Shown piece by piece: positions 1-64,000 of a stretch of 64,000 nt of DNA. Below the pieces are notes generated by a model. That model saw nothing but the letters and a program-made list of their open reading frames with translations, was not told where the DNA came from and ran no database searches. Within the stretch, counting starts at the first letter, position 1. Each line of letters starts with the position of its first letter. A program made the position numbers and the translations under genes. The DNA is from a virus. Location: IMG/VR virus record IMGVR_UViG_3300047673_000158, positions 19,412 through 83,411 of that record. One strand, written 5' to 3'.

Positions 1-959
1 ATGGCAACAAAGTAAACCCGGCTGCTGACTGGATTGATTCGAAGCCATGGGACGGCATACCGCGCATTGAGGCGCTGGCCGACACGCTGGACGCAGCAGA
101 CCCGGAACTGGCCCGCGTGCTGGTGAAACGCTGGATGATTGGCGCCGTGGCGTGTGCGTTCGAAAACCACGGATTTGCCATGCAAGGCGTGCTGGTGTTG
201 CAGGGCGCGCAAGGCGCAGGTAAGACGACGTGGATTATGGGGCTGGCCGACAATAACCGCGATCTGGCCGCCGAATCCGTGATTTTGAACCCGGCCGACA
301 AAGACAGCGTGAAGCAGTTCGCATCTTACTGGCTGGTAGAGTTGGGCGAACTGGAAGCGACTTTCAGTAAGTCAGACATTACCGCGCTGCGCGGCTTCCT
401 CACCAAAAAGGTTGACGAACTGCGCCTGCCGTATGCGAAGGCCACAAGCAAATTTCCACGACGCACGGCGGCTGCCGCGTCCGTGAATGATCGGGCGTAT
501 CTGCGCGACGAAACGGGGAACCGGCGATACTGGACGATTGAGTGCGGCGCAGGCTTGAACGGTATGCACGGGATCGACATACAGCAGGCATGGGCCGAAG
601 CGAAGGTGCTTTACCTGGCTGGCGAGCGGCACCCGTTGACCAAAGATGAAATGGAGCGCCTGTCTGAGTCGAACATGACCTACACAGAACGCAATCCGCT
701 GTCCGACTTGATTATGGACCGCTTCGATTGGGAAAGCCTGTCCGTGGTCAAAATGTCGGCAACTGACGTTTGCATTGCGGTGGGTTACGACAAGCCGACC
801 ACCAAACAGGTGAAGGACGCGGGCACGATCCTGCGCAAGGCGACCGGCAAAGAGCCTTCCCGTTCGAACGGCCGCGTTGTGTTCGCTGTACCACCTTTGA
901 AGCGAAACAGTTACAAACAGGAACAAAATTTCGAAGACGACAACAGCCGCCCTTTCTAA
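1..959 (+). CDS. Primase-helicase, VirE/VapE P-loop domain and C-terminal winged helix (5' truncated by window), copy A
   Basis: Walker A GAQGAGKT, LRDETGNRRYW motif; near-identical to the 3' part of 42319-44730. Confidence 0.88.
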   Translation, partial: GNKVNPAADWIDSKPWDGIPRIEALADTLDAADPELARVLVKRWMIGAVACAFENHGFAMQGVLVLQGAQGAGKTTWIMGLADNNRDLAAESVILNPADKDSVKQFASYWLVELGELEATFSKSDITALRGFLTKKVDELRLPYAKATSKFPRRTAAAASVNDRAYLRDETGNRRYWTIECGAGLNGMHGIDIQQAWAEAKVLYLAGERHPLTKDEMERLSESNMTYTERNPLSDLIMDRFDWESLSVVKMSATDVCIAVGYDKPTTKQVKDAGTILRKATGKEPSRSNGRVVFAVPPLKRNSYKQEQNFEDDNSRPF

Positions 960-1041
960 AATTTGCTAAACTGCGCCCACATGCCCGATGATTCGGGCTT
1001 TGTCAACGGCGGGGATTACAAAATTGTGAAAGGGGAAGGCC

Positions 1042-1245
1042 ATGGGATCATTGCTCAACGAACAGGAAGCGCGTGAATTACTGGACGGATTCGGCAAGGC
1101 TAACAGCCTGGAGGAAGCCGAACTGCGCGGAATGCAGCGCATGTTGTCGCTTGTGTGCAACAGCGGAAAACGAGACTTCCCCACGCTGGTGGGGCGCATG
1201 CGCCGTGTGATCGAGGCAGCGCGCGAGGAAACGACGGCGCACTAA
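1042..1245 (+). CDS. Hypothetical protein (67 aa)
   Basis: RBS aagggg; conserved at 44813-45016; followed by terminator. Confidence 0.7.
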   Translation: MGSLLNEQEARELLDGFGKANSLEEAELRGMQRMLSLVCNSGKRDFPTLVGRMRRVIEAAREETTAH

Positions 1246-1267
1246 TGACGACAGCACGTAAGCGATT

Positions 1268-1291
1268 AAGCCACCTTCGGGTGGCTTTTTT
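1268..1291 (+). terminator. Intrinsic terminator AAGCCACC-TTCG-GGTGGCTTTTTT
   Basis: GC stem, UUCG loop, U tract; same family at 2223, 4852, 23863 and in copy B. Confidence 0.85.
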
Positions 1292-1309
1292 ATTTGTGCG
1301 GCAAAATGC

Positions 1310-1345
1310 TTGCGTTTCCCTAGGGAAACATGGAAAATCGCTTTC
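1310..1345 (+). promoter_or_regulatory. Sigma70-like early promoter with 16-bp operator GTTTCCCTAGGGAAAC and a 13-bp motif over the -10
   Basis: TTGCGT-17-GAAAAT; perfect palindrome 1314-1329; GAAAATCGCTTTC 1333-1345. Confidence 0.7.
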
Positions 1346-1370
1346 ATTGACAACGAAGGCGGGGTGCGAG

Positions 1371-1616
1371 ATGAACGAAGCGAAGGCAATCGAATATGCA
1401 ACCGTGCATTCTGTCACGGTTTCGACGGATAGAAAGAGCGGAAAGGGGGCGCGGGCGTTTGCGTGGTTTCGTGCTGGTGGTTTCGTCGTTCGATCGATTG
1501 CGGGGCAGCAATGGCGCGTGATCGGCGATGATGGCGCGACGTTCACTGGTAGGCGCGGGCAGTGCATAGAATTCTGCGTGAATGCGACGGTTATGCGCCG
1601 CTCCGATGTCGTTTAA
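1371..1616 (+). CDS. Hypothetical early protein (81 aa)
   Basis: ATG just after the promoter; distant homolog at 45145-45402. Confidence 0.6.
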   Translation: MNEAKAIEYATVHSVTVSTDRKSGKGARAFAWFRAGGFVVRSIAGQQWRVIGDDGATFTGRRGQCIEFCVNATVMRRSDVV

Positions 1617-1660
1617 CAACCAGCCCGCCAAGCGCGGGCTTTTCCATGGAGAAACAAAGG

Positions 1661-1993
1661 ATGGCGAATCAAACCCTGGCGGAAATGATCGCGGCGCGTG
1701 ACGAGCTAACGCGCCAGATTGACGAGTTGCAGGCGGCAACCAGGGCCGAAGCGGTGCGGACGGTGGCGGCGCTGATCGCTGAACACGACATGACGGCGCA
1801 CGAAGTGGGGCTGGTGAGAACGCGGCACATCAAGCCTGGCCGCAAAGGTGCGCCGACGTTCAAGCAGAAGGCGAAGCGACCGCCTAACCCGCCGAAGTAT
1901 CGGGACCCGAAGACGGGCGCGACGTGGACGGGGAACGGCAAGGCACCTGCCTGGCTGAACGGGCAGGATCGGGACGAGTTTCTAATCTATTGA
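1661..1993 (+). CDS. hns: H-NS family protein (Bv3F-like) with variant NGK hook
   Basis: N-terminal coiled coil plus PKYRDPKTGATWTGNGKAPAWL. Confidence 0.85.
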   Translation: MANQTLAEMIAARDELTRQIDELQAATRAEAVRTVAALIAEHDMTAHEVGLVRTRHIKPGRKGAPTFKQKAKRPPNPPKYRDPKTGATWTGNGKAPAWLNGQDRDEFLIY

Positions 1994-2060
1994 GGGGCGG
2001 CGCCCGCGAAAGGTGAGGAAATGCGGGATACAATGGGCCGCCAACAACACGGGGTGGTAC

Positions 2061-2201
2061 ATGGTCCTGTTCCTTCTGTTTTTAATATTCGCGCTGCTGT
2101 TTTTTGTGGCGGCGCTTTGGTACTTCCTTCTGGCGCTGTCGCTGTTCCGTGCAGTGAGTACATTGCAGCGGGCGAAACCACGGCGCGAACACGCACACTA
2201 G
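2061..2201 (+). CDS. Small membrane protein (46 aa), moron-like
   Basis: Hydrophobic N-terminal ~28 aa, upstream TACAAT, own terminator; same-length ortholog at 45955-46095. Confidence 0.65.
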   Translation: MVLFLLFLIFALLFFVAALWYFLLALSLFRAVSTLQRAKPRREHAH

Positions 2202-2222
2202 ACCCGCGCGATAGTCACTTTC

Positions 2223-2246
2223 AAGCCACCTTCGGGTGGCTTTTTT
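2223..2246 (+). terminator. Intrinsic terminator
   Basis: AAGCCACC-TTCG-GGTGGC-TTTTTT. Confidence 0.85.
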
Positions 2247-2279
2247 GTTGCGTTTTTTCGTTTAAACGCAAAACGGTGC

Positions 2280-2308
2280 TTGTGTTTGCTTATGGAAACA
2301 TTTATGAT
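2280..2308 (+). promoter_or_regulatory. Early promoter with operator GTTTGCTTATGGAAAC
   Basis: TTGTGT-17-TATGAT; operator 2284-2299. Confidence 0.75.
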
Positions 2309-2343
2309 TCTTCCATCGACAACGAAACACGAAGTGGAACGAA

Positions 2344-2541
2344 ATGAACGCAATCTACAAGCACATTCGCGCAGCATACAAGGCAGGTCAAATGTCTAAC
2401 ATTGCTATCGAGCGCGCCGAAGATGGAAACGGTTGTTTCGTTCGCGCGAATGGCAAATTTCTGCAATGGTTTGCGTCCGTGAATCTTGCTGAACAGGAAA
2501 TAGCAAAGCAGCAATCCAAGTGCGCTAAGTTCATTGCATAA
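2344..2541 (+). CDS. Hypothetical early protein (variable cassette)
   Basis: Directly after promoter and RBS; unrelated gene occupies this slot in copy B. Confidence 0.65.
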   Translation: MNAIYKHIRAAYKAGQMSNIAIERAEDGNGCFVRANGKFLQWFASVNLAEQEIAKQQSKCAKFIA

Positions 2542-2589
2542 CCAGCTAACCGCGCCCGCTTCGGCGGGCATCAATGAGGGGATGCGGAA

Positions 2590-2769
2590 ATGGAAAAGCA
2601 AATTGCAATCAAACACGCGCCGCGCAATTGGTCTTCGCTGAAGCGCTTCGCATGGTCGGACCAGCGCCCTTTTGTGGTGTACGTGGACGGCCAGATAGCG
2701 AAGGATAAGAAAGGCAACGAACGCCGGTTTTCGACGGCCGAAGGCGCCAGAAAAGCGTTTTCAAAATAA
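2590..2769 (+). CDS. Hypothetical protein (59 aa, MEKQIAIK..., not in ORF track)
   Basis: RBS GAGG upstream, open frame to TAA 2769, flanked by conserved linkers. Confidence 0.6.
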   Translation: MEKQIAIKHAPRNWSSLKRFAWSDQRPFVVYVDGQIAKDKKGNERRFSTAEGARKAFSK

Positions 2770-2842
2770 ACACCAAGCCCGCCGCGCGCGGGCTTTTCCA
2801 CTGAAACGGTGGCCGGTGCCGCCGTCGTTCGGAATCCTGAAA

Positions 2843-3037
2843 ATGACTATCAAAAATCGGGCGAAGGTGGCGGAACGGGCAAAGGCTTACGATGCAGCCA
2901 CGGTGCCGACGACGGTGCTAATTTATGCCCTGGCTGACGCAGTGGCGCAGAGTGTCGCAGATGCTACCGGGGCGCCGGTTGATTTCGTGATTCATGGTGT
3001 GGTTAAAATTTCCAGGCAGCCGCAGAAGGCGGCATAG
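2843..3037 (+). CDS. Hypothetical protein
   Basis: Conserved at 46769-46963. Confidence 0.6.
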   Translation: MTIKNRAKVAERAKAYDAATVPTTVLIYALADAVAQSVADATGAPVDFVIHGVVKISRQPQKAA

Positions 3038-3047
3038 GGGGGGTTGT

Positions 3048-3578
3048 GTGAAGGGTCAAATTGAACTGGTGTTGCGCTGGGCTTGCCCGTGCGAAAACAA
3101 CGAAGAATTGCAGGTGGTTTCCCGCCTGCCAGCATGGGCGAATTGCGCAATGGGCGAGGCTACGTTCCGCGAAGCCTGGGCGCAGTTCGCTGGTGAGATT
3201 AAGGCGCATTCGCCTGCCGCGCCATCGGTCGAGCAGGACGAGCGCGGGGCGTTCGAGCGAGCATTGATTAGCTATGCCATGGACGAGGCAGAGAGCACCG
3301 ACGCGGAGGTAATCAGGCAATCACGGGCGCGAGTAATGGCCTTGTTCGACGCCGCCCGCGCCGCATCAACTTCCGCCAATGTGGCGCAGGGAGAGAAGCG
3401 CGATGCGAAAAGCGACCGCTATTTCTTGGTCGTTGAAAATGGCTCTTATCTGATAGTTGATCGCGAAAGAAGTGAGATGCGGGGAGACGAGCCTGACTAC
3501 TTTGTATTGGCGTGGACACCGAATAAAGACGATGCCAAGTTTGTGTGTGATGTCATGAACGAGTCAAGGGAGTTTTAA
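3048..3578 (+). CDS. Mosaic hypothetical protein
   Basis: GTG start after RBS; ERGAFE and NVAQG linker motifs. Confidence 0.55.
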   Translation: MKGQIELVLRWACPCENNEELQVVSRLPAWANCAMGEATFREAWAQFAGEIKAHSPAAPSVEQDERGAFERALISYAMDEAESTDAEVIRQSRARVMALFDAARAASTSANVAQGEKRDAKSDRYFLVVENGSYLIVDRERSEMRGDEPDYFVLAWTPNKDDAKFVCDVMNESREF

Positions 3579-4073
3579 ATGAAACTGACATCTGACGCTA
3601 AAGGCACTGACGCGGCGCGCCGTTATTTGGCCGAGCTTTTGAGAAACGGAAACGGCTCAAATCAATACGCGGATTACATTCGTCATGAACTGGCGGGCGA
3701 CTTCGCGTGGGAATTGGTGAACCGCCTTCTTTACCCCAATGTGGCGCAGGGTGCGGAGGCGGTGTATCAGCAGCAGTATCGCGGCGAAGGCGTGTGGCGA
3801 GACATGCCGAAAGATAAGTGGGACGAGAAACAAGCCGGAATCCTCGCGAGTGACCAACGATTCCGCATCGTCTACACCGCCCCGCCAGCACAGACAGCGC
3901 TCACGGCAACATGCGGACAACTTATCGCCGCTTGCACCGCATACAACGAAGAAATGCGAAAGCGAAACACAGCCAACGTTGGTATGGCGGCGCCTGATGC
4001 GATGCGCAAAGCCATCGACGCCGCCATGACCGCCGCTCAATCAGCAAGCGGGGAAACGAAATGCGGCCAATAA
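3579..4073 (+). CDS. Mosaic hypothetical protein
   Basis: RBS ggag; NVAQGAEAV linker. Confidence 0.6.
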   Translation: MKLTSDAKGTDAARRYLAELLRNGNGSNQYADYIRHELAGDFAWELVNRLLYPNVAQGAEAVYQQQYRGEGVWRDMPKDKWDEKQAGILASDQRFRIVYTAPPAQTALTATCGQLIAACTAYNEEMRKRNTANVGMAAPDAMRKAIDAAMTAAQSASGETKCGQ

Positions 4074-4279
4074 CAAACGCCGACCTATGGGACATTCTGA
4101 CCCAGGCGGAAAGCCGGGTGCGCGAGTATGCCGGAACTGAATTCGACCACGTGGCGAAGCATGCGCAGGAAACCGTGGATTTGGTCATGGCGCGGCTGGA
4201 ACGTAAAGGACTTACGCGGGTGGATTTGGAAGGGCTGGCGGGTATCGAGCGCATGGCTGTGGCGTGTGCGGGTGTTTAA
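4061..4279 (+). CDS. Hypothetical protein
   Basis: Ortholog at 48151-48384. Confidence 0.65.
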   Translation: MRPITNADLWDILTQAESRVREYAGTEFDHVAKHAQETVDLVMARLERKGLTRVDLEGLAGIERMAVACAGV

Positions 4280-4326
4280 TCAACCAGGCGGCCACGGGGT
4301 GGCCGTCGATTTGCGAGGGTGGCGAA

Positions 4327-4824
4327 ATGACGAAAGCGGTAATCATAGTGGGCAGCCCGGCCGACAGCGCGACGCAGTGCGCCAGTGCGCTTGCGCAGCA
4401 CTTCGGGAAAACCGACATTGAGCATGCGGACCTGCCTGCCGACTTCTACACAGGCGGCGCATTCCCGGATAACGCGCTGGTGTTGACGACGGATGACGAC
4501 TTGGCCGTGCATCACAAGACAATCCACGGCGCGACGGTGTACACGTTTAAGGAAGCGGCGCTGGCGGCCGGGCTTAACAACGGCATGCGCGAGCCGGTGG
4601 ACGGCGTGCTGGACGGATACGCGGCCGTTCGCGTGAATAGCTCGCTGCCTCACGTGGCCGTGCTTGATTCTGTGGGCAAGGGGATTTTTACGCTGCCTGT
4701 CGATTACACCGCCCAGCAGGTGAATACAGCGATACGCATTTATGAACAGGCGTGGAAGTGCGGCCATGCATTCGGCGCGGACTTCGTTCGGCATTCAATC
4801 CGCAATGCGTTGGGTATCGTATAG
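4327..4824 (+). CDS. Small P-loop-like protein with degenerate Walker A
   Basis: AVIIVGSPADSAT aligns with AVIIYGPQGCGKT of the copy B ortholog. Confidence 0.6.
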   Translation: MTKAVIIVGSPADSATQCASALAQHFGKTDIEHADLPADFYTGGAFPDNALVLTTDDDLAVHHKTIHGATVYTFKEAALAAGLNNGMREPVDGVLDGYAAVRVNSSLPHVAVLDSVGKGIFTLPVDYTAQQVNTAIRIYEQAWKCGHAFGADFVRHSIRNALGIV

Positions 4825-4851
4825 CCGCTTTCTTCGTACCCTCTACTACAC

Positions 4852-4875
4852 AAGCCACCCTAGGGTGGCTTTTTT
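4852..4875 (+). terminator. Intrinsic terminator
   Basis: AAGCCACCC-TA-GGGTGGCTTTTTT. Confidence 0.8.
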
Positions 4876-4951
4876 GTTTCCAAAAAACAACGCGTGTACG
4901 TAGTGAATGAAGGTAAGTAATGACACCACCCACATTCACTTTCATTCGCAC

Positions 4952-4980
4952 TTGCTTACTTTGATGTACTTGTGGATAAT
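4952..4980 (+). promoter_or_regulatory. Sigma70-like promoter; DnaA box TGTGGATAA (4971-4979) overlaps the -10
   Basis: TTGCTT-17-GATAAT; copy B has TTGCTT-17-GACAAT without the box. Confidence 0.6.
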
Positions 4981-5058
4981 GTAAATCACCGCGTTACCTA
5001 TTAGTAACCTGTTCTGATTCACTGTTTGACTGCATATCATCCACTACACCCTAAGACC

Positions 5059-5640
5059 ATGAAAACCATTATCGAACTGATCCACGAAGCGAACCGGATA
5101 GCGCATAACGAAGCCATTGGCGAAATCACCGTGGACGGCATTCTAGTGGCGCTGGCGACGCTGGAAGCGGCCAGCGGGAAGCGTACGCGCCGCACGCCTG
5201 ACGAGTTCAACCCGGCCGACCACGACGCGGTGGCTAACCTGGTTGCCAATCTCGCAGAAGACGTGGTGAGCGCTTCCATGGTCTATCGCGAGTTATACGG
5301 CCGCACGGGCACCACGGCCGAACTGCGCACCGTGTCGGACGCGCTGCGGGCCTGTGAGTGGGTGCCGTACAAGTCCAATGGGCGCACCAAGTGGCGGCGC
5401 AAGACCATCGCGGAAGACGGCCTGCTGGGGCTGGAAAACGGCCAGGAAATCTATGACCGCGTGCTGGCGTGGGGCGAGAGTGTGCCGCGTTTCCGTGACA
5501 CCGCATCCACCATTTTCCGCCGTGTCATGGGGCGCGATCCGGTGGGGCATGAGGCGCGCGCGGCTGGCGCTGCCCTGCGTGACCTGGGCGCACTGTCGCG
5601 ACGCTCGAATGGCAGCCTGATTTACGAGAAACGCGGGTAA
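5059..5640 (+). CDS. Tandem winged-helix DNA-binding protein next to the origin
   Basis: Two internal repeats ending KSNG and RSNG that resemble the primase C-terminal domain (RSNG). Confidence 0.6.
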   Translation: MKTIIELIHEANRIAHNEAIGEITVDGILVALATLEAASGKRTRRTPDEFNPADHDAVANLVANLAEDVVSASMVYRELYGRTGTTAELRTVSDALRACEWVPYKSNGRTKWRRKTIAEDGLLGLENGQEIYDRVLAWGESVPRFRDTASTIFRRVMGRDPVGHEARAAGAALRDLGALSRRSNGSLIYEKRG

Positions 5641-5850
5641 CGCTACCCTGGAACCCTGCGCACTTACCTGCCATCTACCCTGTCACGAAGCCTTGCCCGG
5701 CAAGGCTTTAAGCCATTTAGGGTGCTTTAGTTAACCAGATTTACCAAATAACTAGGATGAAAGGGTATAGAGGTAATAAGTAGATATAAGCATTGTCTCT
5801 ATACCATAGCAAATCAAAACGTATAGAAATCACCGCCCTACCTACCCTGT
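5641..5850. other. Putative replication origin with ACCCT iterons, hairpin and AT-rich core
   Basis: Direct and inverted TACCCTG/AGGGT repeats around AAGCCTTGC-N-GCAAGGCTT; non-coding, AT-rich. Confidence 0.6.
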
Positions 5851-5932
5851 AGCTTTTCCGGTAATAAATACCGATTTCCGCTCGCATTCTGTTAACATAA
5901 CCCCGCAGTGGCAATTTTTACCGAACGGGGCT

Positions 5933-6322
5933 ATGGACACTAAACCACTACCGGCAAGCGTGCAGGAAATCGCGGACGTGATCGGACGCGAACAGGCGTT
6001 ACACCTTGTGGCGAGTCTGCCGCGACGGAGTGACAACCGACCAGGCAAAGCGTGCAAGCGGCCAATGCTCTATGTGCCGCAGCGAATCACGATGGACCAC
6101 AAGCTGGTGGCCATATTGGGATTTGAAGACGCGGCAAAGATGGTTAATGCGTTCGGCGGTGAAAACCTGTATCCGGCGACGTGTTCCGAAAACAAGGGCG
6201 GCCGACCGAAGAAAAACACCGCCGTGGAAAGCAAGCCTGAGCAACCCGAAAATGTGGCCACTGTCCACAGCGGGGTTTTCCACATGCTATTTCCTTTCCA
6301 CGGGAGTCCTGCCCGTGTTTGA
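5933..6322 (+). CDS. Mor/C-like late transcription activator
   Basis: IADVIGREQAL...LYVP...ILGFEDAAKMVNAFGGENLY; precedes the lysis and late genes. Confidence 0.65.
   Translation: MDTKPLPASVQEIADVIGREQALHLVASLPRRSDNRPGKACKRPMLYVPQRITMDHKLVAILGFEDAAKMVNAFGGENLYPATCSENKGGRPKKNTAVESKPEQPENVATVHSGVFHMLFPFHGSPARV
6212..6279 (+). promoter_or_regulatory. Late promoter motif AAAAACACCGCCGTGG with -10 GAAAAT and an inverted copy of the motif
   Basis: Motif 6212-6227, -10 at 6248, inverted CCACAGCGGGGTTTT 6265-6279. Confidence 0.6.
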
Positions 6323-6635
6323 TCTAATCAGGCGGTTCCCTGGCGCTGAATGGGCGATAGCCGCCTTATTCGGCGCATTGGTAGCCATGCCATTCCATGA
6401 CGAACTGAAGACGCGTAAAGGCTTCGTGGTCTTCGTTCTCACTGGTGTGTGCTGCGGCTACTTTCTGACTGGCGCTGTCATGCGCTATTTCCACATCAAT
6501 CCTGAATCAGCCGGTGGCGTTGGTTTTCTGCTGGGCGCATTTGGCGGCAGCATGATTTCCGCCGTGATCCGCTCGATTAAGGAAGCCGACCTGTGGGCGC
6601 TGGTGAAAGCCCGTTTCGGCGGGGGCGCGCAATGA
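6315..6635 (+). CDS. Holin
   Basis: About 3 TM segments, first gene of the lysis cassette. Confidence 0.7.
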   Translation: MFDLIRRFPGAEWAIAALFGALVAMPFHDELKTRKGFVVFVLTGVCCGYFLTGAVMRYFHINPESAGGVGFLLGAFGGSMISAVIRSIKEADLWALVKARFGGGAQ

Positions 6636-6892
6636 ATGAAACCATAACCGTGGCGGCTGCAATCGTGCTGGCTCTGTGGGCGTGCTGGTGTGGTTTTTCG
6701 CGCAGCGTCAACGACGGCATTGTGGGCAAGGCGATTTACTTCTGGATCGCCGTTTCCTCATTGGCAATCGTGCTGGGCGTTGCGGAATTGCGGACATATC
6801 AAACGCTGATAGTCGCTTTCGCAATGCTGGGCGTTCGGCATTACTGGCTGCGATACGTCAAAAAACAGCTATTCAAAAAGGCGGCAGCGTAA
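6632..6892 (+). CDS. Second holin/antiholin-like membrane protein
   Basis: About 3 hydrophobic segments, basic C-tail, ATGA-coupled to the holin. Confidence 0.6.
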   Translation: MNETITVAAAIVLALWACWCGFSRSVNDGIVGKAIYFWIAVSSLAIVLGVAELRTYQTLIVAFAMLGVRHYWLRYVKKQLFKKAAA

Positions 6893-7377
6893 TGGCTCGC
6901 ATAACAGCACAGCAAGCGGGCGGGGCGAACCGCGTTGCGTTTCTGGACATGATCGCGCATTCGGAAATCGGCGCGGCGCTGCTGGCGGAGTCGGACGACG
7001 GCTATAACGTGCTGGTGGGATCGACGCCAGCAAAGCCGCTGATTTTCCCGTCGTATGCAACGCATCCGAACGTGTTGAATCGGGCGCTGAATTCGACGGC
7101 GGCCGGGCGCTATCAATTGCTGTTCCGCTGGTTCAAGGCGTATGCGGCATTGCTGAAGCTAACGGATTTCAGCCCGCTGTCGCAAGACATGATTGCATTG
7201 CAGCAGATTCGCGAGCGGGGCGCATTTCCGCTGATCGACGCGGGCCAGTTCGAAACGGCCGTCGAGCGCTGTTCGAACATTTGGGCATCGCTGCCCGGCA
7301 ATTCGTATGGCCAGCATATGAACGATATCAAGGCGCTGAAAGTCGCTTTCGTTAATGCGGGCGGGGTGGCGGCATGA
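6892..7377 (+). CDS. Endolysin, lambda R-type lytic transglycosylase (GH104)
   Basis: AFLDMIAHSE, STAAGRYQ, FSPLSQD, IWASLPG motifs. Confidence 0.92.
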   Translation: MARITAQQAGGANRVAFLDMIAHSEIGAALLAESDDGYNVLVGSTPAKPLIFPSYATHPNVLNRALNSTAAGRYQLLFRWFKAYAALLKLTDFSPLSQDMIALQQIRERGAFPLIDAGQFETAVERCSNIWASLPGNSYGQHMNDIKALKVAFVNAGGVAA

Positions 7378-7682
7378 AAGACTTTCTGATTTTAATCGCG
7401 CTGTGCGGTGCGGTGATATTCGGAATTACTTCGTGTGAGCAATCGAAGTGGTATCAGGACAGCGAGAAATCGAGGCGCGAACAGGAAAGGCTTGATGCAA
7501 CACCGCACGTGATCCGTGAAGCGGACGGCTGCAAAGTGTACGCGTTCAAGTCGGGCGACAACTGGCATTACTTCACAAGATGCGCTGACGGCACAGTAAC
7601 GACAGAGCGCAACTATTCAGAACGGCACGGAAAGACGACCGTCCATAAATCCGAAACCATCGTTACGTCGGGGAACAGATGA
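7374..7682 (+). CDS. Putative lipoprotein (copy A only)
   Basis: Signal peptide with ITSC lipobox-like motif; absent from copy B. Confidence 0.6.
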   Translation: MKDFLILIALCGAVIFGITSCEQSKWYQDSEKSRREQERLDATPHVIREADGCKVYAFKSGDNWHYFTRCADGTVTTERNYSERHGKTTVHKSETIVTSGNR

Positions 7683-7804
7683 AGCAGGACGCAATTCTGG
7701 CGATGCTGTGTGGCGCAGTTTTCGTGGCCGGGTTGCTTACTGGCTATTTCGCAAAAGAGCCGGTGGCGAAGCCGGTTCATATCGTGAGGGTGATTCAGGC
7801 ATGA
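7679..7804 (+). CDS. Small membrane protein (41 aa)
   Basis: ATGA coupling at both ends; ortholog at 51557-51688. Confidence 0.55.
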   Translation: MKQDAILAMLCGAVFVAGLLTGYFAKEPVAKPVHIVRVIQA

Positions 7805-8019
7805 AGCGAGCATTGATTGGCGCGGCAATCGGCAGCGTGTTGGCGCGCAAGAGTGGCACGGTTGTGTCCATGGGCGGCGAACCCGTTGGCCTAGCGCGAG
7901 CGGATTTCAAAGATCGCATTGCAGCCATGCAAATGCGCGGAACGATTCGGACGTGCGTTAAGAATGCGCGGCGTGAATACAACCGCATGGCGGGCAGCGA
8001 CAAACTGCCGAAGCCGTGA
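7801..8019 (+). CDS. Hypothetical protein
   Basis: Core RAxFKDRIAAMQMRGTI shared with 51685-51909. Confidence 0.55.
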   Translation: MKRALIGAAIGSVLARKSGTVVSMGGEPVGLARADFKDRIAAMQMRGTIRTCVKNARREYNRMAGSDKLPKP

Positions 8020-8095
8020 TAGTCGCTTTCGCAATTGCAGTTCCGGTGGCGCTGGGGTTTGGCGCCTTCGTGTATCGGTTGACGGGGGAAATCAC

Positions 8096-8563: not shown

Positions 8564-8717
8564 TTGCGCGAGCGTTGCGCCTGCTGCTAGTGGTCGCCTG
8601 GTTGACCTGCTATCCAATCACGTGGACGTGGCGCTGGCATTGGCGGATTGTCGGAGAAGTAAGGCTGATCTGGCCGAAGCGCTCAAAGCGCAAAAAGGTA
8701 TTGACATTGTGCCGTGA
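8394..8717 (+). CDS. o-spanin (Rz1-like lipoprotein), overlapping the i-spanin
   Basis: Lipobox LTGC; two further Cys; overlapped architecture. Confidence 0.72.
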   Translation: MRIIMMGQTPGKTRPGMLAALLGLALTGCASGTAPMQPLTVVVPSSHPTVRQALLNDCASVAPAASGRLVDLLSNHVDVALALADCRRSKADLAEALKAQKGIDIVP

Positions 8718-8871: not shown

Positions 8872-8873
8872 GT

Positions 8874-52820: not shown

Positions 52821-52823
52821 TTA

Positions 52824-55757: not shown

Positions 55758-55761
55758 CGCA

Positions 55762-56292
55762 ATGCAGGGGCAATTTCCTAACAGCATCCGTGCTGGCGTG
55801 ACGTTTTCGCGCACCGTGTGCCTGAAACAGTACCAAGCGCCCGAATGGGCGCTTTCTGTGCTGCTGCGCGGACCAAAGGCCATTGATTTTTCCAGCGTGC
55901 CTTCTGGTAGCGACCACCTGCTGACGGTGGACGCCGCGACCACGGCAACGTGGCCCGCTGGTGATTACGTTTTCGCAGTCCGGGCAGTATCGAACGGCAC
56001 CGTAATGGAAGTGGAAGCCGGGCTGGTGACGGTTCAGCCTGACATTGCCGCGATGGCTGACGGCACCGACACCCGCGTGCATGCCCAGCGTGTCCTGGAT
56101 GCCATCGAAGCGGTGCTGGAAAAGCGCGCGACGCAGGATCAAATGCGCTACGCCATCAATAACCGCGAGTTGTGGCGCACGCCCATTGCGGACCTGCTGG
56201 CCCTGCGGAATTTCTACAAAAGCGAACTGCGCCGCATGAAGGCCGCCCAGCGTGGCCGCCTGTTTGGCGAACAGGTAAAGGTGATTCTCTAA
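55762..56292 (+). CDS. Head completion protein (copy B)
   Basis: Ortholog of 12168-12698. Confidence 0.7.
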   Translation: MQGQFPNSIRAGVTFSRTVCLKQYQAPEWALSVLLRGPKAIDFSSVPSGSDHLLTVDAATTATWPAGDYVFAVRAVSNGTVMEVEAGLVTVQPDIAAMADGTDTRVHAQRVLDAIEAVLEKRATQDQMRYAINNRELWRTPIADLLALRNFYKSELRRMKAAQRGRLFGEQVKVIL

Positions 56293-57872
56293 TGGGAATG
56301 TTCGATTTCATTCGTTCGCGCGGGCTGATGCCTGCCCGCGCCGTCGAAATGCCGTCCACCACGCCACCTTCCCGCCCTGTGCGCGCCCTGCGCGCTGCTG
56401 GCCGCGCGCTTCGTTCCGCGATGCAGTTCAACGCTGCTGGATTTGATCGTTTAAACGCAACGTGGACCGGCACGGCGCTGCCCGCTGACTGGATCATTAC
56501 GCGGAACTATCGCCCGCTTGTCGCGCGCTCGCGTGACCAGGCGATGAATAACGACTATGCGCGGGCGTTCCTGCGCATGTGTAGCCAGAATATCGTGGGG
56601 CCGAAAGGCATAACCATGAAAGCCGCTTTCAAAAAAGCGGACGGCAGCCACGACGCGGACACCAGCCGGGCGCTGAAGTCCGCATGGGAACAGTGGGGCC
56701 ACAAAAGCACGGCCGACGTGGCGGGCAAAAAGTCGTGGCGCGCTATCCAGCGCTTGCTGGTGAAAAGCGCGGCGCAGGACGGAGAATTTTTCCTGCGCAT
56801 TGTCACGGGCAAAGACGCTGGAAAGTGGGGTTTTGCGGTGCAGGTGATCGACCCGTTGCGGGTGCCGATTGACTACAACGTGGACCGCTACAACCAGGGC
56901 AATTTCATTCGCCACGGGATCGAGTTCAACCGTTACGGCCGCCCGGTGGCCTACCACCTTTCGACGGTGGACGACGGCGAAGCCGAATATGAGTATGCGG
57001 GCGTTGGTTACACGACCGTACCTGCCGACCAGATGGTGCACGGCTTCCTGGAAGACCTGGTGGGCCAGAAACGCGGCCTGCCATGGATGGCCACGGCGCT
57101 ATTCCGTATGCGGAATATGGCCGCATTCGAAGACGCGGCAATCATCAATGCACGCGTTGGCGCGTCAAAAATGGGTTTCGTCCAGTGGAAAGACGGCGAG
57201 GCGCCGGAATTCGAAGACGGCGACGACCCCACTAGCCTGGAATTCGACGCAGAACCTGGCTCTTTCAACGTGCTGCCGCAGGGCGCCGAAATGAAGGAGT
57301 GGCTGCCGCAGTATCCCAGCGGTGAATTTCTGCCCGTCTTCAAAACTCTGCTTCGCGGCGCAAGCGCAGGCTTTGGTGTTTCGTACAACAACCTAGCCAG
57401 CGACCTGGAAGGCGTCAATTTTTCGAGTATCCGCCAGGGCACGCTGGACGAACGCGAGCATTGGAAAGAATTGCAGGAATGGCTGATTGAAGACGCCATC
57501 CAGCCGGTGCAGGAAGCATGGCTGCGCTATTCGCTGCTGAAAGGCCGAATCAAGGTTAAAGGAAAGCCGCTTTCACCTGCGCTTCTGGACGACTTGCAGG
57601 ACGCCATTAGTTGGCAGCCGCGCCGCTGGCAGTGGATCGACCCGACAGCCGACGTAGCAGCCGCCGTGGAGTCGAAAAACAACCTGCTAACCAGCGCTGG
57701 CCGAATCATTCGCGAATGGGGCGGCGATCCTGACGAAATCTTTGCCGACATTGCCGCCGACATTAAGGCGATGGAAGCCGCTGGCATTGACGAAAAATAC
57801 ATTCTGGCATCCATGGGCCAAGCGCTTGCGCCGCCGCCCGTGGCGTCAGAAGGCAGCCACCCGAACAGCTAA
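56292..57872 (+). CDS. Portal protein (copy B)
   Basis: Ortholog of 12698-14278. Confidence 0.95.
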   Translation: MGMFDFIRSRGLMPARAVEMPSTTPPSRPVRALRAAGRALRSAMQFNAAGFDRLNATWTGTALPADWIITRNYRPLVARSRDQAMNNDYARAFLRMCSQNIVGPKGITMKAAFKKADGSHDADTSRALKSAWEQWGHKSTADVAGKKSWRAIQRLLVKSAAQDGEFFLRIVTGKDAGKWGFAVQVIDPLRVPIDYNVDRYNQGNFIRHGIEFNRYGRPVAYHLSTVDDGEAEYEYAGVGYTTVPADQMVHGFLEDLVGQKRGLPWMATALFRMRNMAAFEDAAIINARVGASKMGFVQWKDGEAPEFEDGDDPTSLEFDAEPGSFNVLPQGAEMKEWLPQYPSGEFLPVFKTLLRGASAGFGVSYNNLASDLEGVNFSSIRQGTLDEREHWKELQEWLIEDAIQPVQEAWLRYSLLKGRIKVKGKPLSPALLDDLQDAISWQPRRWQWIDPTADVAAAVESKNNLLTSAGRIIREWGGDPDEIFADIAADIKAMEAAGIDEKYILASMGQALAPPPVASEGSHPNS

Positions 57873-57878
57873 GACACC

Positions 57879-59801
57879 ATGACGACACCGACGACAAAAG
57901 AGCCGATTTCCCTGCGCGAAATTAACAGCCGTGGCGTGCATTTGCGCACCGCCGAAGTGGGCGCAATCGACGTGGAAGCGCGCACCGTAGAACTGGCGTT
58001 TAGTTCGGAAATTGAAGTGCCGCGCTGGTGGGGCGTTGAGATTCTTTCGCACGCCGAAGGTGCCGCCGACTTGTCGCGCCTGAATAACGGCGGTGCGCTG
58101 CTGATGGACCACGACCGCACCGACCAGGTGGGCGTGATCGAATCCGCGCGAATCGACGGCGACAAGCGCGGCCGGGCTGTCGTTCGCTTCGGGCGCGGCG
58201 TGCGCGCCAGCGAAGTGTTCCAGGACGTTATCGACAAAATCCGCACCCACGTGTCCGTGGGTTACACCATTGACGCGTACATCCTGACCGAGGAACGCGA
58301 AGGCGAGCCCGTGTACACCGTCACTTCCTGGATGCCCATGGAAATTTCCTTTGTGAGCATTCCGGCTGACGACTCCGTGGGCGTAGGGCGTTCGGCAGAA
58401 AACCCCGCCGTGGAAACGCCCGTGGCAGCGCCGCAAAATCCGAACATGCCCGAAACGGGCAGCGAAACACCACACACTCAAGGAATCCGAAGCATGCCGG
58501 AACTGAACCAGGAACCGCAAACCATCGACGCCGACGCACAGCGCCGCGCCGGTGCTGATGCCGAGCGCGCCCGCGTTCGGGAAATCATGGCCGCAGGCAA
58601 CAAATATGGCGCCGACGACTTGGCGCGCGATTTCGTTTCGAGCGGCAAGACCATGGACGAGTTCCGCGAAGCGCTTCTGGCGCACGTCGAACAGCGCCAA
58701 ACGCGCCCGCTGGCCGAACAGACGCTGGACGCGTCCGTGGGCCTGTCGGCTGAAGACGCGCGCAAATTTTCGTTCATGAAGGCAATCCGCGCGCTGGCGA
58801 ATCCGACCGACCGCAAGGCGCAGAAGGAAGCCGGTTTCGAAATCGAAGCTGGCCGCGCTGCCGCCGAAAAGCTGGGCAAGGAAGCGCAGGGCATCATGGT
58901 GCCGCCCGAAGTGCTGGGCCGCTCGCTGATCGAATCGCGAAATTTCAACGCTGGCCAGAACGGCCAAACCGGCGCAGGTTCGACGGGCGGCGCATCCATC
59001 GCCACCGAACTGATGGCGAGCGCGTTTATCGACTTGCTGCGCAACGCCACGACCATCATGCAATTGGGCCGACCGATTGGCGGCCTGGTCGGAAACGTGG
59101 ACATTCCGCGCAAAACTGCCCGCTCGCAAGGCTACTGGATCGGTGAAGGCGACGATGCGCCCGAAGGCGAAATGGACCTGGGCCAAATCGCGCTTTCTCC
59201 GAAGACGGTTGCAGCGTATTCGGACATTACGCGTCGCCTGATGATGCAATCGAGCCTGGACGTGGAAGCGCTGGTGCGCGCCGATCTGGCCGAGGCGCTG
59301 GGCCTGGCGATCGACTACGCCGGTTACTACGGTTCGGGCACGGCACACCAGCCGAAGGGCATTTCTAACTACACGGGCATTTCCGCCGTGGCGTTCGCAG
59401 CGGCCAATCCGTCGTATGCAGAAGCCGTGGCGATGGAAACCGCGATTGCGTCGAAAAACGCGGCCGTGTCGAACATGGCCTATGTCGTCAATGCGACCAC
59501 CAAGGGCGGCGCAAAGACCACGCAGAAATTCCCCGGCACGCCGACCGGCGCGACGCTGTGGGAGCAAGGCGACACGATGAACGGGTATCAAACCCGCGTG
59601 ACGAACCAGCTTCAGAGCGACGACGTGTTTTTTGGCAACTTCGCGGATCTGATTATCGCCATGTGGGGCGGCCTGGACCTGACGGTTGACACCATGTCCC
59701 TGTCGAAGTCGGGCGGAACCCGCATCGTGGTTTTCCAGGATGTCGATTTCGCATTGCGTCGCGTCGAATCGTTCTGCGTGGGTCGCCATACCGGCGCGTA
59801 A
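57879..59801 (+). CDS. Protease-major capsid fusion (copy B)
   Basis: Ortholog of 14285-16213; internal ATG 58494. Confidence 0.93.
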   Translation: MTTPTTKEPISLREINSRGVHLRTAEVGAIDVEARTVELAFSSEIEVPRWWGVEILSHAEGAADLSRLNNGGALLMDHDRTDQVGVIESARIDGDKRGRAVVRFGRGVRASEVFQDVIDKIRTHVSVGYTIDAYILTEEREGEPVYTVTSWMPMEISFVSIPADDSVGVGRSAENPAVETPVAAPQNPNMPETGSETPHTQGIRSMPELNQEPQTIDADAQRRAGADAERARVREIMAAGNKYGADDLARDFVSSGKTMDEFREALLAHVEQRQTRPLAEQTLDASVGLSAEDARKFSFMKAIRALANPTDRKAQKEAGFEIEAGRAAAEKLGKEAQGIMVPPEVLGRSLIESRNFNAGQNGQTGAGSTGGASIATELMASAFIDLLRNATTIMQLGRPIGGLVGNVDIPRKTARSQGYWIGEGDDAPEGEMDLGQIALSPKTVAAYSDITRRLMMQSSLDVEALVRADLAEALGLAIDYAGYYGSGTAHQPKGISNYTGISAVAFAAANPSYAEAVAMETAIASKNAAVSNMAYVVNATTKGGAKTTQKFPGTPTGATLWEQGDTMNGYQTRVTNQLQSDDVFFGNFADLIIAMWGGLDLTVDTMSLSKSGGTRIVVFQDVDFALRRVESFCVGRHTGA

Positions 59802-59889
59802 GTTTTAGGCAGTAAGCGGCATAGGCTGCCGCTACTGAGACACGGAACGGGCAGCGAAGCGCTGCCCGTTTTCACATCAAATCGAGGAA

Positions 59890-60084
59890 ATGAAAGTGGC
59901 TTTCGAACGCGGGGAAGTGCTGGAAGTGCTGAAGCCGTTTTTTGTGGACGGCGAAATGGTTATGCCGGGTGATCGGGTGGAATTGCTGCGCGCCGACGCC
60001 ATGCAACTGAAATCACGCGGCATGGTGGTGGCAGAAGGCGCCCAGCGGGCTGCCAAGCCATCGGCCAAGGGCAAGGCCGCCTGA
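59890..60084 (+). CDS. Small head-associated protein (copy B)
   Basis: Ortholog of 16303-16497. Confidence 0.6.
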   Translation: MKVAFERGEVLEVLKPFFVDGEMVMPGDRVELLRADAMQLKSRGMVVAEGAQRAAKPSAKGKAA

Positions 60085-60401
60085 TGCCAGCGCATCCCGC
60101 CTGGGACGTTCTGGACGATTTTCTGGACCCGGACGACTTCGCCAGCCAGGCAACAATCACGCTGGCCAATGGCAGCGTGATTGTTGCCATGGGCGTGCTG
60201 GACGAGCCGGGGCAGACCATTGGCGTGGGCACCGCCGAAATGGACACCACGCGGCCGGTTTTCACGTGCAAGTTTGTGGACGTGGCAGCCGTTCGGCGCG
60301 GCAATGCGGTGGTGATCGAGAGCAAGGCTTACGAAGTCCACAAAAGCCCGCACGCCCTGGGTGACGGCATGGCCCTGCTGTACCTGGAACCCTCGCTGTG
60401 A
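60084..60401 (+). CDS. Head-tail joining protein (copy B)
   Basis: Ortholog of 16497-16814. Confidence 0.75.
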   Translation: MPAHPAWDVLDDFLDPDDFASQATITLANGSVIVAMGVLDEPGQTIGVGTAEMDTTRPVFTCKFVDVAAVRRGNAVVIESKAYEVHKSPHALGDGMALLYLEPSL

Positions 60402-60964
60402 TTGAAATTTCGATTGACGAACACAGCCTGGACGCTATCGAAGCGTTTCTGGCTGCGACGCCTAAGCAGGTGGACAAGGCGCTGAATTCGACTTTCACGA
60501 AGATGGCGCGCTGGCTAACGGCCAAATCAATCCGCGAGCTATCCGCACACCTGAAGCTGCCGCGAAAGGAAATGAAACGGCGGCTGCGCACGTTCCGGCT
60601 GTCGCGCGTGGCGGGCGGTAAGGGCGTGCGGGTGTGGTACGGGCTGGACCCGATAGGCGTCATTCACCTGGACGCAAAGGAAGACCGGGGGATAGGCGGT
60701 GGCGTGGCCGCCTACGGCGACCGCTTTTTTGCTAACGCGTTCATAGCGAAGGGCCGGGCAGGCAACGGCGGCACGGCCGCGTCCAACAGGCAGGTTTTCA
60801 AGCGCAAGGGCCGCGCCCGGCTGCCGCTTCAGAAAGTCACTGTCGCGCTGGGCGATCCGGCGCAAACGTACATCGAAGACCACCTGCTGGGCGGGTCCGT
60901 CTTTATGGATCGGTTTTTTAAAACATTCGAACACGAACTGACATGGCGACAACGCTCCCAATAG
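60398..60964 (+). CDS. Minor tail protein Z-like (copy B, divergent allele)
   Basis: Ortholog of 16811-17389. Confidence 0.72.
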   Translation: MIEISIDEHSLDAIEAFLAATPKQVDKALNSTFTKMARWLTAKSIRELSAHLKLPRKEMKRRLRTFRLSRVAGGKGVRVWYGLDPIGVIHLDAKEDRGIGGGVAAYGDRFFANAFIAKGRAGNGGTAASNRQVFKRKGRARLPLQKVTVALGDPAQTYIEDHLLGGSVFMDRFFKTFEHELTWRQRSQ

Positions 60965-61506
60965 TCCAGATTTCTGGCGTTAAAGCCGCCATCGTGGCCG
61001 CGATCCAGGCGACATTCCCCGACTTTAAGGCGGTGGTATTTGACCGCGAGGAAACCGACCGCGACGCGCTGGAAGCCGACGAACTGCCGGGCATCCTGCT
61101 GGACATTACCGAATTTGAAGACGAACCCGATTGCGACCGCTCAAACGGGCTTATCCCGATGCGTGGCCGCTTCGAAGCGCGGGTGGTGGTCGGATACAAG
61201 ACGACGCAGGCGAAGACCGCAGCGCAGGCCGCAGCAATGACGCTGGCCGCATGGCTGCGCCTGAAGCGGTTCAATTCGGATTCATGCTGGACCGAGGCGG
61301 CGCACGTGATTGGCGCGTACCGTGACGAGTTCCACCCGATGGCCGACCGCTATGTGGTTTGGCGTGTCGAGTGGACGCAGGTAATTCAGTTCGGTACGGA
61401 CATTTACGCAGAAGGCGACCTGCCGACGCCGAACCCGTCTTACAGCTTTGCGCCTGACATTGGCACGGGCCACGAAGCTGATTACATCCCGCTGGTGCCG
61501 CAATGA
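60943..61506 (+). CDS. Tail terminator (copy B)
   Basis: Ortholog of 17365-17931. Confidence 0.65.
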   Translation: MATTLPIVQISGVKAAIVAAIQATFPDFKAVVFDREETDRDALEADELPGILLDITEFEDEPDCDRSNGLIPMRGRFEARVVVGYKTTQAKTAAQAAAMTLAAWLRLKRFNSDSCWTEAAHVIGAYRDEFHPMADRYVVWRVEWTQVIQFGTDIYAEGDLPTPNPSYSFAPDIGTGHEADYIPLVPQ

Positions 61507-62174
61507 GCGCCCAGGACATTGGCGAACTGCAACGGCAGATTTCGCAGCTAATCCGCATTGGCACCGTGGTTTCCGTGACCGGCGACATGGCCGCGGTGGA
61601 AATTGGCGGGGTGGAGTCGGACCCGATGCAATGGGCGGTGCAGCGCGCCGGGCCAGATGCCGAATGGTGGGCGCCGGAACCGGGCGAACAGGTGGTGATC
61701 CTGACGCCTTACGGCGACGTGGCGCAGGCCATCATCCTGTTTTCGCTGTATCAGGATTTGTACGCGGCGCCCGCGAACGATCCGAACGTGCATCGGGTTT
61801 CGTACAAAGACGGGACCGTGATCCAGCACGACCGCAGCGCGAAGGCGTACAGCGTCAACGTGCCCGCTGGCGGAAGCATTTCGCTTACCGTGGGCAGCAC
61901 GTCGCTGGTGCTGGTTGACGGCAAAGCGACGCTGACGGCGCAGCAGTTCGAACACGTGGGCGACCAGGCGACATTCGACGGCGCGGCGACCATTAAAAAG
62001 CTGCTGTCGTGGCTGTCCGGGGTATCCGGTGCGGCTGGAAGTGGCGGCGGAACGAACGCCATCAATGGCGGCGTAAATGTCGTGAATGGTGACGTGGTTG
62101 TGGATGGCATTGGTGTTAAGTCGCACCACCACAACGAACACGACGGCCCGCCGACCAGCAACGCGCAAGCCTAA
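61503..62174 (+). CDS. Baseplate spike gpV-like (copy B)
   Basis: Ortholog of 17928-18599. Confidence 0.9.
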   Translation: MSAQDIGELQRQISQLIRIGTVVSVTGDMAAVEIGGVESDPMQWAVQRAGPDAEWWAPEPGEQVVILTPYGDVAQAIILFSLYQDLYAAPANDPNVHRVSYKDGTVIQHDRSAKAYSVNVPAGGSISLTVGSTSLVLVDGKATLTAQQFEHVGDQATFDGAATIKKLLSWLSGVSGAAGSGGGTNAINGGVNVVNGDVVVDGIGVKSHHHNEHDGPPTSNAQA

Positions 62175-62219
62175 ACCCCGCCGTGGAACGGGGCGCTGGC
62201 CACGGCCAGAATCCCGTTC

Positions 62220-62558
62220 ATGAACGGAACCAACGCGACTACTGGAAAGCCGCTTTCAGGCGTTGAACACCTGCGGCAATCCATTACTGACATTCTCACG
62301 ACGCCAATAGGCAGCCGTGTGATGCGCCGCGACTACGGCAGCAAGCTGTTTAGCCTGGTTGATGCCCCAATGAATCTTTCCACCGTGTCGCGCATCTACG
62401 CCGCTACGGTGGCCGCGATTCGCAAGTGGGAACCCCGCTTTCAGGTTACACGCGTAAGCCTTTCCAGCGCCGAACCGGGCGCAATCGCGCTGGACATTTT
62501 CGGCAATTACCTGCCTGACGGGCAGCCCGTAAAAATTGACGGCATAAAGGTTTCGTAA
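62220..62558 (+). CDS. Baseplate gpW-like (copy B)
   Basis: Ortholog of 18645-18983. Confidence 0.93.
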   Translation: MNGTNATTGKPLSGVEHLRQSITDILTTPIGSRVMRRDYGSKLFSLVDAPMNLSTVSRIYAATVAAIRKWEPRFQVTRVSLSSAEPGAIALDIFGNYLPDGQPVKIDGIKVS

Positions 62559-63481
62559 TGTCCAACGCCTATACAGCGGTGGACCTGTCCACACTTGCAC
62601 CGCCGCAGGTTATCGAAGCGCTGGATTTCGATACGATTTTCGCGGACATGCTGGCCGATCTGATTGCGCGAAGCGCGAACGATCCATACCCGTTTACCGC
62701 GCTTGTCGAGTCAGACCCGGCTTACAAGGTTTTGCAGGTGGCGGCCTATCGTGAAGTCCTGCTGCGCCAGCGCATCAACGAAGCCGCCCAGGCGCTAATG
62801 CTCGCGTATGCGACCGGGACCGACCTGGACCAAATCGGCGCCGGGCTGGACGTGCCGCGCCTGACAATCACGCCAGCCGACGATACGACCATACCGCCGA
62901 CGCCTGCCGTGATGGAGAGCCACGCCGCATACCGCGCCCGCATCCAGCAGTCTTTCGAAGGCTTCAGCAGCGCCGGGCCGGTGGGCGCCTATCAGTTTTA
63001 CGCGCTGTCGGCAGATGGCCAGGTGCGGGACGTAAGCGTTACGTCGCCCACGCCTGGGACCGTGCTGGTAACGATCCTGTCTGCAAATGGCGACGGCGGC
63101 GCAGACAGCGACCCGGACGGCAAGCTGCTGGCGGCCGTCACTGCGGCGCTGACGGCGGAAAACGTGCGCCCGCTGTGCGACACGGTTCTGGTCCAGTTCG
63201 CGGGAATCCTGCCCTACACGCTGAACGCCACGCTGGAAATTTACGCGAGCGTGGACCAGGAAGCGGTTCTGGCCATGGCGAACCAAACGGCGGCCGAATA
63301 CACGCTGGCCTGCTGGAAATGCGGCGCCGCGCCGACGCTGGCAGGCGTGTATGCGGCGCTGTTTGTTACGGGCGTTCACAACGTGATTCTTCACGCGCCG
63401 GGCATCCAGGCCGACATGGTGGCGACGAAGACGCAGGCCGCCTTCTGTACTGGAATCACGATTAACGGGGTGGTGGCGTGA
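62558..63481 (+). CDS. Baseplate J-like (copy B)
   Basis: Ortholog of 18983-19906. Confidence 0.93.
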   Translation: MSNAYTAVDLSTLAPPQVIEALDFDTIFADMLADLIARSANDPYPFTALVESDPAYKVLQVAAYREVLLRQRINEAAQALMLAYATGTDLDQIGAGLDVPRLTITPADDTTIPPTPAVMESHAAYRARIQQSFEGFSSAGPVGAYQFYALSADGQVRDVSVTSPTPGTVLVTILSANGDGGADSDPDGKLLAAVTAALTAENVRPLCDTVLVQFAGILPYTLNATLEIYASVDQEAVLAMANQTAAEYTLACWKCGAAPTLAGVYAALFVTGVHNVILHAPGIQADMVATKTQAAFCTGITINGVVA

Positions 63482-64000
63482 CGGACGCGGTGCAGGAAGA
63501 CAGCCTGCTGCCCGTCAACGCGACGCAGGCAGAGCGCAATCTGGCGCTGGCCGTTTCGCGTATAAGCGCTGTTCCTGTGCCCCTGCGCTCGCTTTACAAC
63601 CCGGCAACGTGCCCGGCCGTGGCGCTGCCATGGCTCGCGTGGGCGTGGTCGGTTAGCGAGTGGGATAGCAACTGGCCCGAAGCCACGAAACGCGCCGTGA
63701 TAGCGGCCAGCGTGGCGGTCCACAAAATCAAAGGCACGCCAGCATCCATAAAGGCGGCGCTGGCTGCTGCGGGCTATCCGGGCGCTGAAGTGATCGAGGG
63801 TGCAGGTAGCTGGTATCTGGATGGCTCGCGAATGCTCAATGGCGCCGACTTCCTGGGCGACAGCGACGGCACGAAATGGGCCTGGTATCGCGTGCGGCTT
63901 GCCCAGCCGATTGCAAACAGTCAGGTGGCGCAGGTGAAACGGATTCTGGCTAACACCGCGCCAGCGCGCTGCTACTTGGAAGCGCTGGATTTCACCGCCG
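63478..64000 (+). CDS. Tail protein I (copy B, 3' truncated by window)
   Basis: Ortholog of 19903-20490. Confidence 0.9.
   Translation, partial: MTDAVQEDSLLPVNATQAERNLALAVSRISAVPVPLRSLYNPATCPAVALPWLAWAWSVSEWDSNWPEATKRAVIAASVAVHKIKGTPASIKAALAAAGYPGAEVIEGAGSWYLDGSRMLNGADFLGDSDGTKWAWYRVRLAQPIANSQVAQVKRILANTAPARCYLEALDFTA

Follow-up and report, generated by a model that had tools for sequence, protein, structure and literature searches.

The stretch of viral DNA analysed here, called the window, comprises 64,000 nucleotides and corresponds to bases 19412 to 83411 of the IMG/VR record IMGVR_UViG_3300047673_000158. It carries two related phage genomes joined head to tail. An earlier note, made from the window alone, proposed that this array is a hetero-concatemer or cointegrate formed by homologous recombination between relatives, and named a chimeric assembly of two strains as an equally valid explanation. 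The latter is favoured by a 127-base repeat, sequencing depths, single-unit records, and an independent contig from another sample. The record is very probably a chimeric de Bruijn-graph contig, produced with a final k of 127, from two co-occurring strains (A and B) of one myophage with cos-type packaging, and not a hetero-concatemer; the haplotype switch on that repeat, the unequal depth of the two strains, the presence of strain B alone in one metagenome run, and the separate continuation of each strain all argue against the recombination product.

The whole record is a single contig of 83,411 bp that contains no N and is catalogued as linear and 100% complete. It amounts to 1.92 laps of a cos myophage unit of about 43.3 to 43.8 kb, and is thus far longer than the genome expected from a related single-unit record, G001 (43,301 bp). 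Self-BLAST of the window and of the whole record places contig positions 1-39836 colinear with 43338-83411, head to tail, a duplication that takes up at least 20% of the contig. The laps are about 90% identical where they can be aligned. Within the window, positions 1-20425 match 43772-64000 in 11 colinear blocks of 70-94% identity, the largest of which spans 10,320 bp at 89.4%, and only window 20426-23926, with the tail-fibre genes inside it, is present in a single copy. Differences between the laps concentrate at third codon positions (96 of 116 in the portal gene, 32 of 38 in the baseplate V gene, and 57 of 83 in the baseplate J gene), which speaks for natural divergence and against error. 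A similar count for TerL, which is 80.5% identical at the nucleotide level, may be out of register through an indel and was left unused. Two colinear but different genomes, as the earlier note described them, are therefore present. Its statement that host DNA is lacking also holds, since homology in the self-BLAST of the whole record reaches both ends, leaving no non-phage or host DNA there.

Along its plus strand the window begins in the later part of lap 1, the strain-A arm (1..20425; contig 19412-39836), which contains early/accessory, lysis, packaging, head, and P2-type baseplate genes. It then passes through a single-copy tail-fibre cassette, termed S (20426..23926), which self-BLAST, fibre families, depth in a metagenome run designated X1, and the independent contig L005 assign to strain A. 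Next comes the shared 127-mer at the A-to-B switch (23927..24053), which overlaps the start of the tail-sheath gene and is identical to record bases 1-127. The rest is lap 2, the strain-B genome, running from the sheath gene round to a P2-I-like baseplate gene (24054..64000) and recognized by its identity to G001 and by contigs from a second run, X2.

The earlier note saw no visible scar at the join. Inside the window this is correct; on the whole record it is not, for contig 43338-43464 (window 23927-24053) is an exact copy of the first 127 bases of the record, which the window does not include; at base 128 the laps part. Among 41,178 aligned positions, 8 would give a forward exact run of just this length; taken over k = 33, 55, 77, 99, and 127 together, the probability of such a coincidence is about 1%. 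According to the Joint Genome Institute (JGI) metagenome workflow description, metaSPAdes is run with these five values, 127 being the final one (10.1101/2020.09.30.320929). The repeat at the closure of the circle has the length of that last k, and the source assembly presumably used k = 127. That assemblers leave repeats of k-mer length at contig ends is stated in the CheckV paper (PMC8116208). Two contigs from two other samples, the B-type L006 and the A-type L007, share a starting point 92 bases further along and agree with each other for exactly 127 bases before they differ. The B-type contig L015 is exact to the record over contig 43231-43556. The run shared by A and B at the join is about 225-234 bp, the longest anywhere; elsewhere exact runs between the laps reach at most 194 bp. 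Phase was presumably lost at the join because this longest exact run lies there, beyond what read pairs could bridge.

The position of the join also bears on the idea, raised in the earlier note, that the record is an artefact of the database or of scaffolding, two separately assembled genomes having been pasted end to end. A length of 1.92 units would suit such a paste, but the record has no run of N, and the join lies in register within a gene on an overlap of length k, as a path through a graph gives and unlike an end-to-end paste. This explanation can be given almost no weight.

Sequencing depth separates the two laps. The junction region (window 19500-28500) is present in 24 runs, all of them rhizosphere or soil metagenomes, and four of these were compared over window 14001-34000 at a likeness of at least 85%, with depth taken as contig k-mer depth. 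In X1, the run that covers the record best (0.86 of words), the record allele has a depth of 33.4-54.2 at all 17 listed lap-1 and cassette sites and of 0-23.9 at all 23 listed lap-2 sites, where other alleles reach 36-69. Exact pieces from the same run have depths of 31.8, 46.9, 34.8, 36.1, and 34.4 on lap 1 and the cassette, the last four being cassette pieces, versus 21.3 on lap 2. In run X2 lap 2 is the only haplotype present, at about 200-260x and with a fibre cassette of its own. Four X2 contigs (8,269 bp), at depths of 196-230, match window 24607-33509 with no differences; 15 of the 17 listed lap-1 and cassette sites lack the lap-1 allele; other alleles reach a depth of only 0-3.4 at the 23 listed lap-2 sites; and at each of the 8 left-arm sites checked the X2 allele is that of lap 2. 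Both haplotypes thus exist independently, and since their abundances vary independently, they belong to separate genomes. At the listed sites, the equal depth and constant co-occurrence expected of a hetero-concatemer are not seen (33-54 versus 0-24 in X1, and lap 2 only in X2).

The cassette between the laps encodes a 641-residue fibre protein, a gp53-like protein, a DUF4376 protein, and a 99-residue open reading frame (ORF), and it is strain A's: its exact pieces in X1 are at the strain-A level, while a second cassette variant in that run has a depth of 12-17. X1 also contains a joint, at depth 23.1, that replaces window 23531-23828; its breakpoints (23530 and 23829) are the positions at which the match of the B-type contigs L001 and L002 to the record breaks off and starts again. 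Across near-identical phages from sister samples (L001-L005, L008, and L015), the cassette is mosaic: blocks of 92-100% identity alternate with unalignable ones, and the 99-residue ORF (window 23538-23837) is replaced in some related contigs.

These depths help to judge a variant of the assembler walk in which the junction from the cassette to the B arm is real. A recombinant with B arms and the A cassette would then exist, and the graph would be a figure eight of A arm, shared cassette, and B arm. The length of the record, two units minus one cassette, with ends that abut the two sides of the cassette, is what such a graph would give, and related contigs have visibly exchanged fibre cassettes. 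However, the cassette depth of 34-47 in X1 is that of strain A rather than of A plus B, the second variant and the B-type entry into the 127-mer are present at their own depths (12-17 and 23.1), and the record ends 24 bases past a difference, off any shared 127-mer. A real junction of this kind is therefore improbable. The cleanest form of the idea, with a cassette identical in both strains, was dropped, the cassette depth in X1 being that of strain A alone and the record end not lying on a shared 127-mer.

Independent contigs reveal how each strain continues. L005, a contig of 5,027 bp from a different sample, agrees with the record base for base along contig 42488-43337, through the 127-mer, and along contig 128-716 (1,566 bp in all); as far as contig 4178 its identity to lap 1 is still 99.5%. 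It runs from the fibre cassette through the 127-mer into the strain-A arm, and thus lap 1 closes on itself. The B-type contigs L001-L004 and L015 enter the 127-mer from different, mosaic fibre cassettes. G001 (CheckV completeness 100%) is a single B-like unit with its own fibre cassette, and is 95-97% identical to lap 2 versus 90-92% identical to lap 1. The longest of 80 related IMG/VR contigs is 51,681 bp; none has double length, and the near-complete ones are 40-52 kb. The earlier note had suggested placing a crossover by alignment to single isolates. No isolate is close enough for this: in a megablast of two 20-24-kb pieces against a phage collection, the best matches were 72-76% identical over 2-5% of the query. 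The closest isolates, PPpW-3, Persinger, Mano, Mica, and KA2-1, match at this level over parts of head and tail genes and have genomes of 42.5-44.0 kb, so that one unit corresponds to one genome.

A real A-B hetero-concatemer or cointegrate, arising by homologous recombination through RecE-like, Sak4-like, and SSB functions or by recombination-dependent replication, has to be set against these observations. The phage does encode the proteins that such an event might use. As the earlier note had noticed, a recombination module is present on the minus strand of the window (31607..35392), consisting of SSB (31607-32077; Pfam 3.9e-38), an AAA_24 Sak4-like ATPase (33161-34135; Pfam 1.3e-8), and a DUF3799/exonuclease VIII-like PD-(D/E)XK nuclease (34151-35392; DUF3799 1.2e-37; PHROG 412, exonuclease VIII, 8.6e-104). 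In addition, A and B co-occur in the same runs, a six-frame search found no integrase, and a crossover at the join, where the sequences are exactly identical, would leave no scar. Nevertheless, nothing ties the recombination genes to the join, and a hetero-concatemer gives no reason for the record to start on the very 127-mer at which the haplotype switches. Nor does it fit the roughly twofold depth gap in X1, the presence of B without A in X2, or the absence of any double-length member among the 80 related contigs. As an account of the record it is thus very unlikely. It is just as unlikely that a minority of the molecules in the sample were real A-B hetero-concatemers, one of which the assembler caught; two integrase-less strains would then have co-infected one cell, and the RecE-like/Sak4-like/SSB module would have driven recombination-dependent replication.

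Tandem prophages are known in general, and the record might represent two related prophages side by side in a chromosome or plasmid, with the host flanks trimmed off, or a dimer of two plasmid-prophages. A ParB-like gene (window 37577-38560; Pfam/PHROGs) would be in keeping with this, as would a relative that, in the assembly of a Caballeronia isolate, makes up a separate 42.4-kb contig with end repeats. That contig emerged from a search of bacterial assemblies with the sheath protein, whose nearest matches were the Caballeronia fortuita contig of 42,413 bp (78% amino acid identity) and a Cupriavidus yeoncheonensis contig (68%), and which yielded no close prophage joined to host DNA. That an isolate assembly contains the whole phage as one contig hints that the phage may exist as an episome or in a carrier state. 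Against tandem prophages, the ends of the record carry no host bases, and neither host flanks, att repeats, nor an integrase, resolvase, or protelomerase was found. In line with the earlier note, a six-frame search of the whole record detected no tyrosine integrase, serine recombinase, or protelomerase (PF00589, PF00239, and PF16684) at E<=1; the corresponding statement about transposases relies on a Pfam scan of the 72 called ORFs, which found no recombinase or transposase family, transposases not having been searched family by family. A megablast of window 24000-48000 against PLSDB returned only 79-136-bp ssb snippets in four Pseudomonas plasmids. The depths and the 127-mer count here as well, and a prophage origin for the array is hardly credible. 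Concerning integrases more widely, PF00589 is missing from the record, from G001, and from G004 (L014/L094), the 42,413-bp Caballeronia fortuita contig, which has direct terminal repeats; it follows the tail genes in three more distant IMG/VR records (42,452, 43,564, and 44,033 bp), presumed to be Mano, PPpW-3, and Persinger.

The chimeric contig very probably arose as follows. The sample contained two or more strains of a single cos myophage of about 43.3 kb, A and B among them, and the assembly path began where the sheath gene starts, at a 127-mer that branches. It followed strain A for one full lap (contig 1-43337), A's own fibre cassette included, returned to the same 127-mer and, instead of stopping, left it through the branch of strain B. 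The path then tracked B for 40 kb and broke off just before B's own fibre cassette. The record end (window 63841-64000) lies inside the P2-I-like baseplate gene, and B-type relatives continue from there into cassettes of their own.

Several points weigh against a chimeric assembly, or at least against its details. The depth figures rest on 40 of 2,376 variant rows and on 8 of 350 X1 pieces. The runs were searched as Logan contigs, whose k of 31 does not bridge the shared run of about 225-234 bp, and to take X1 as the source sample is a guess. Seven other exact runs shared by the laps, of 130-194 bp, gave no switch, which has to be ascribed to resolution by read pairs; at these runs further haplotype switches might also have passed unnoticed. 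Finally, the record does not end on a k boundary: lap 1 and lap 2 last differ just 24 bases before its end, and the run that they share at this point would measure about 108 bp. Trimming of an overlap or a third strain may account for this position.

If the record is a chimera, the array is not a real feature. The real part is modest: at least two co-occurring strains of an integrase-less clade of cos myophages, found in the rhizosphere and carrying a hypervariable fibre cassette. A real array would have been direct evidence of inter-strain recombination intermediates caught in nature. As an artefact, the record is mainly a matter of data hygiene, in that such contigs may inflate genome-size statistics, seed false clusters of 'large phages', and mislead strain-level analyses. 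A possible screen for the same fault would ask whether the first k bases of a record recur exactly one genome length in.

The unit itself, annotated by a Pfam scan of the 72 called ORFs and by PHROGs, has the gene set of lambda-type cos packaging. Packaging and head genes encode a Nu1-like TerS, a GpA-type TerL, a portal of the lambda family, and a protease-capsid fusion; the TerS and TerL genes of lap 1, both recognized by Pfam, lie on the plus strand at 9026-9538 and 10130-12163. The supporting matches are PF07471 (2.5e-12 and 4.2e-9), PF05876 and PF20454 (1e-71 to 1e-88), and PF05136 (1.2e-86). The tail is of the P2-type contractile kind, with sheath, tube, tape measure, and gpU, gpX, gpD, gpV, gp25, gpJ, and gpI homologues in addition to the fibre proteins. 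Replication and DNA metabolism are represented by a helicase, the ParB-like protein, a DNA methyltransferase, and a VapE-type primase; other genes encode an H-NS-domain protein, a holin, an endolysin, and a spanin. An H-NS C-terminal DNA-binding domain is present in both laps (window 1562-1993, 143 residues, 1.1e-12, versus 45399-45731, 110 residues, 6.8e-13). Between the genes for SSB and the Sak4-like ATPase, an 86-residue minus-strand ORF (window 32123-32383) has a weak match, below the cut-off, to the Acb2/Tad1 hairpin (E 3.3e-4; 21.2 versus 27 bits), and may be either an anti-defence sponge or a chance match. A 360-residue minus-strand ORF (window 39002-40084) was rejected as spurious; it has no PHROG match, and the plus-strand ORFs that overlap it match a DNA methyltransferase (1.1e-67) and an endonuclease.

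The regions upstream of TerS differ between the strains. On the plus strand, the lap-1 region (8717..9026) holds a candidate cos core string at 8902-8914 and TTATCCACA repeats at 8818-8871, and the lap-2 region (52616..52977) holds a second candidate string at 52852-52864 and TTATCCACA repeats at 52747-52820. Each candidate string occurs once, and the two lie at homologous places 5' of the Nu1-like TerS genes. The candidate strings do differ, as the earlier note had observed, but the argument that it drew from this against ligation of cohesive ends becomes irrelevant under chimeric assembly. The repeat TTATCCACA, which equals the E. coli DnaA-box consensus, is present 8 times in the window, versus 0.21 copies expected, and none of 100 shuffles reached 8. 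Just upstream of TerS, lap 1 has three copies and lap 2 has four, in an inverted arrangement, and another is at 4971-4979. They may be either DnaA boxes or cosB-type sites bound by TerS. TerS with its upstream region (8780-9538 versus 52730-53497) is 71.6% identical between the strains at the nucleotide level, versus 89.4% in the neighbouring block from TerL to the baseplate, a divergence that suggests a module swap in packaging specificity.

Among known systems, the closest counterpart of the record is the class of concatenated contigs treated in the CheckV paper. That paper reports 290 IMG/VR contigs of more than twice the expected length as probable assembly artefacts, and 6,543 contigs with a duplicated region of at least 20%, attributed to assemblers concatenating copies of a genome (PMC8116208). 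The record shares with this class a length of about twice that expected, a duplication well above 20%, and a k-length repeat at the closure of a circular graph; it differs in that its copies are two strains about 90% identical rather than one genome repeated. The mean 20-mer multiplicity of the record is 1.15, not well above 1 as for the same genome repeated, and because diverged copies keep this value low, a check of k-mer frequency would probably miss the record. It is an uncommon, two-strain form of a known class of assembler-concatenated contigs.

Replication concatemers of cos phages (lambda-type, Nu1/GpA) likewise consist of head-to-tail units with one cos/TerS region each and lambda-type terminase genes, the cos sites being putative here. 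Natural ones, however, are copies of one genome, whereas the units of the record differ throughout and are unequally abundant. With PPpW-3 and Persinger (Pseudomonas), Mano (Achromobacter), and Mica (Burkholderia), the unit shares a lambda-like head module combined with a P2-like tail module. It differs from the integrase-bearing relatives, the presumed records of Mano, PPpW-3, and Persinger, in that the record, like G001 and the Caballeronia contig, is without PF00589.

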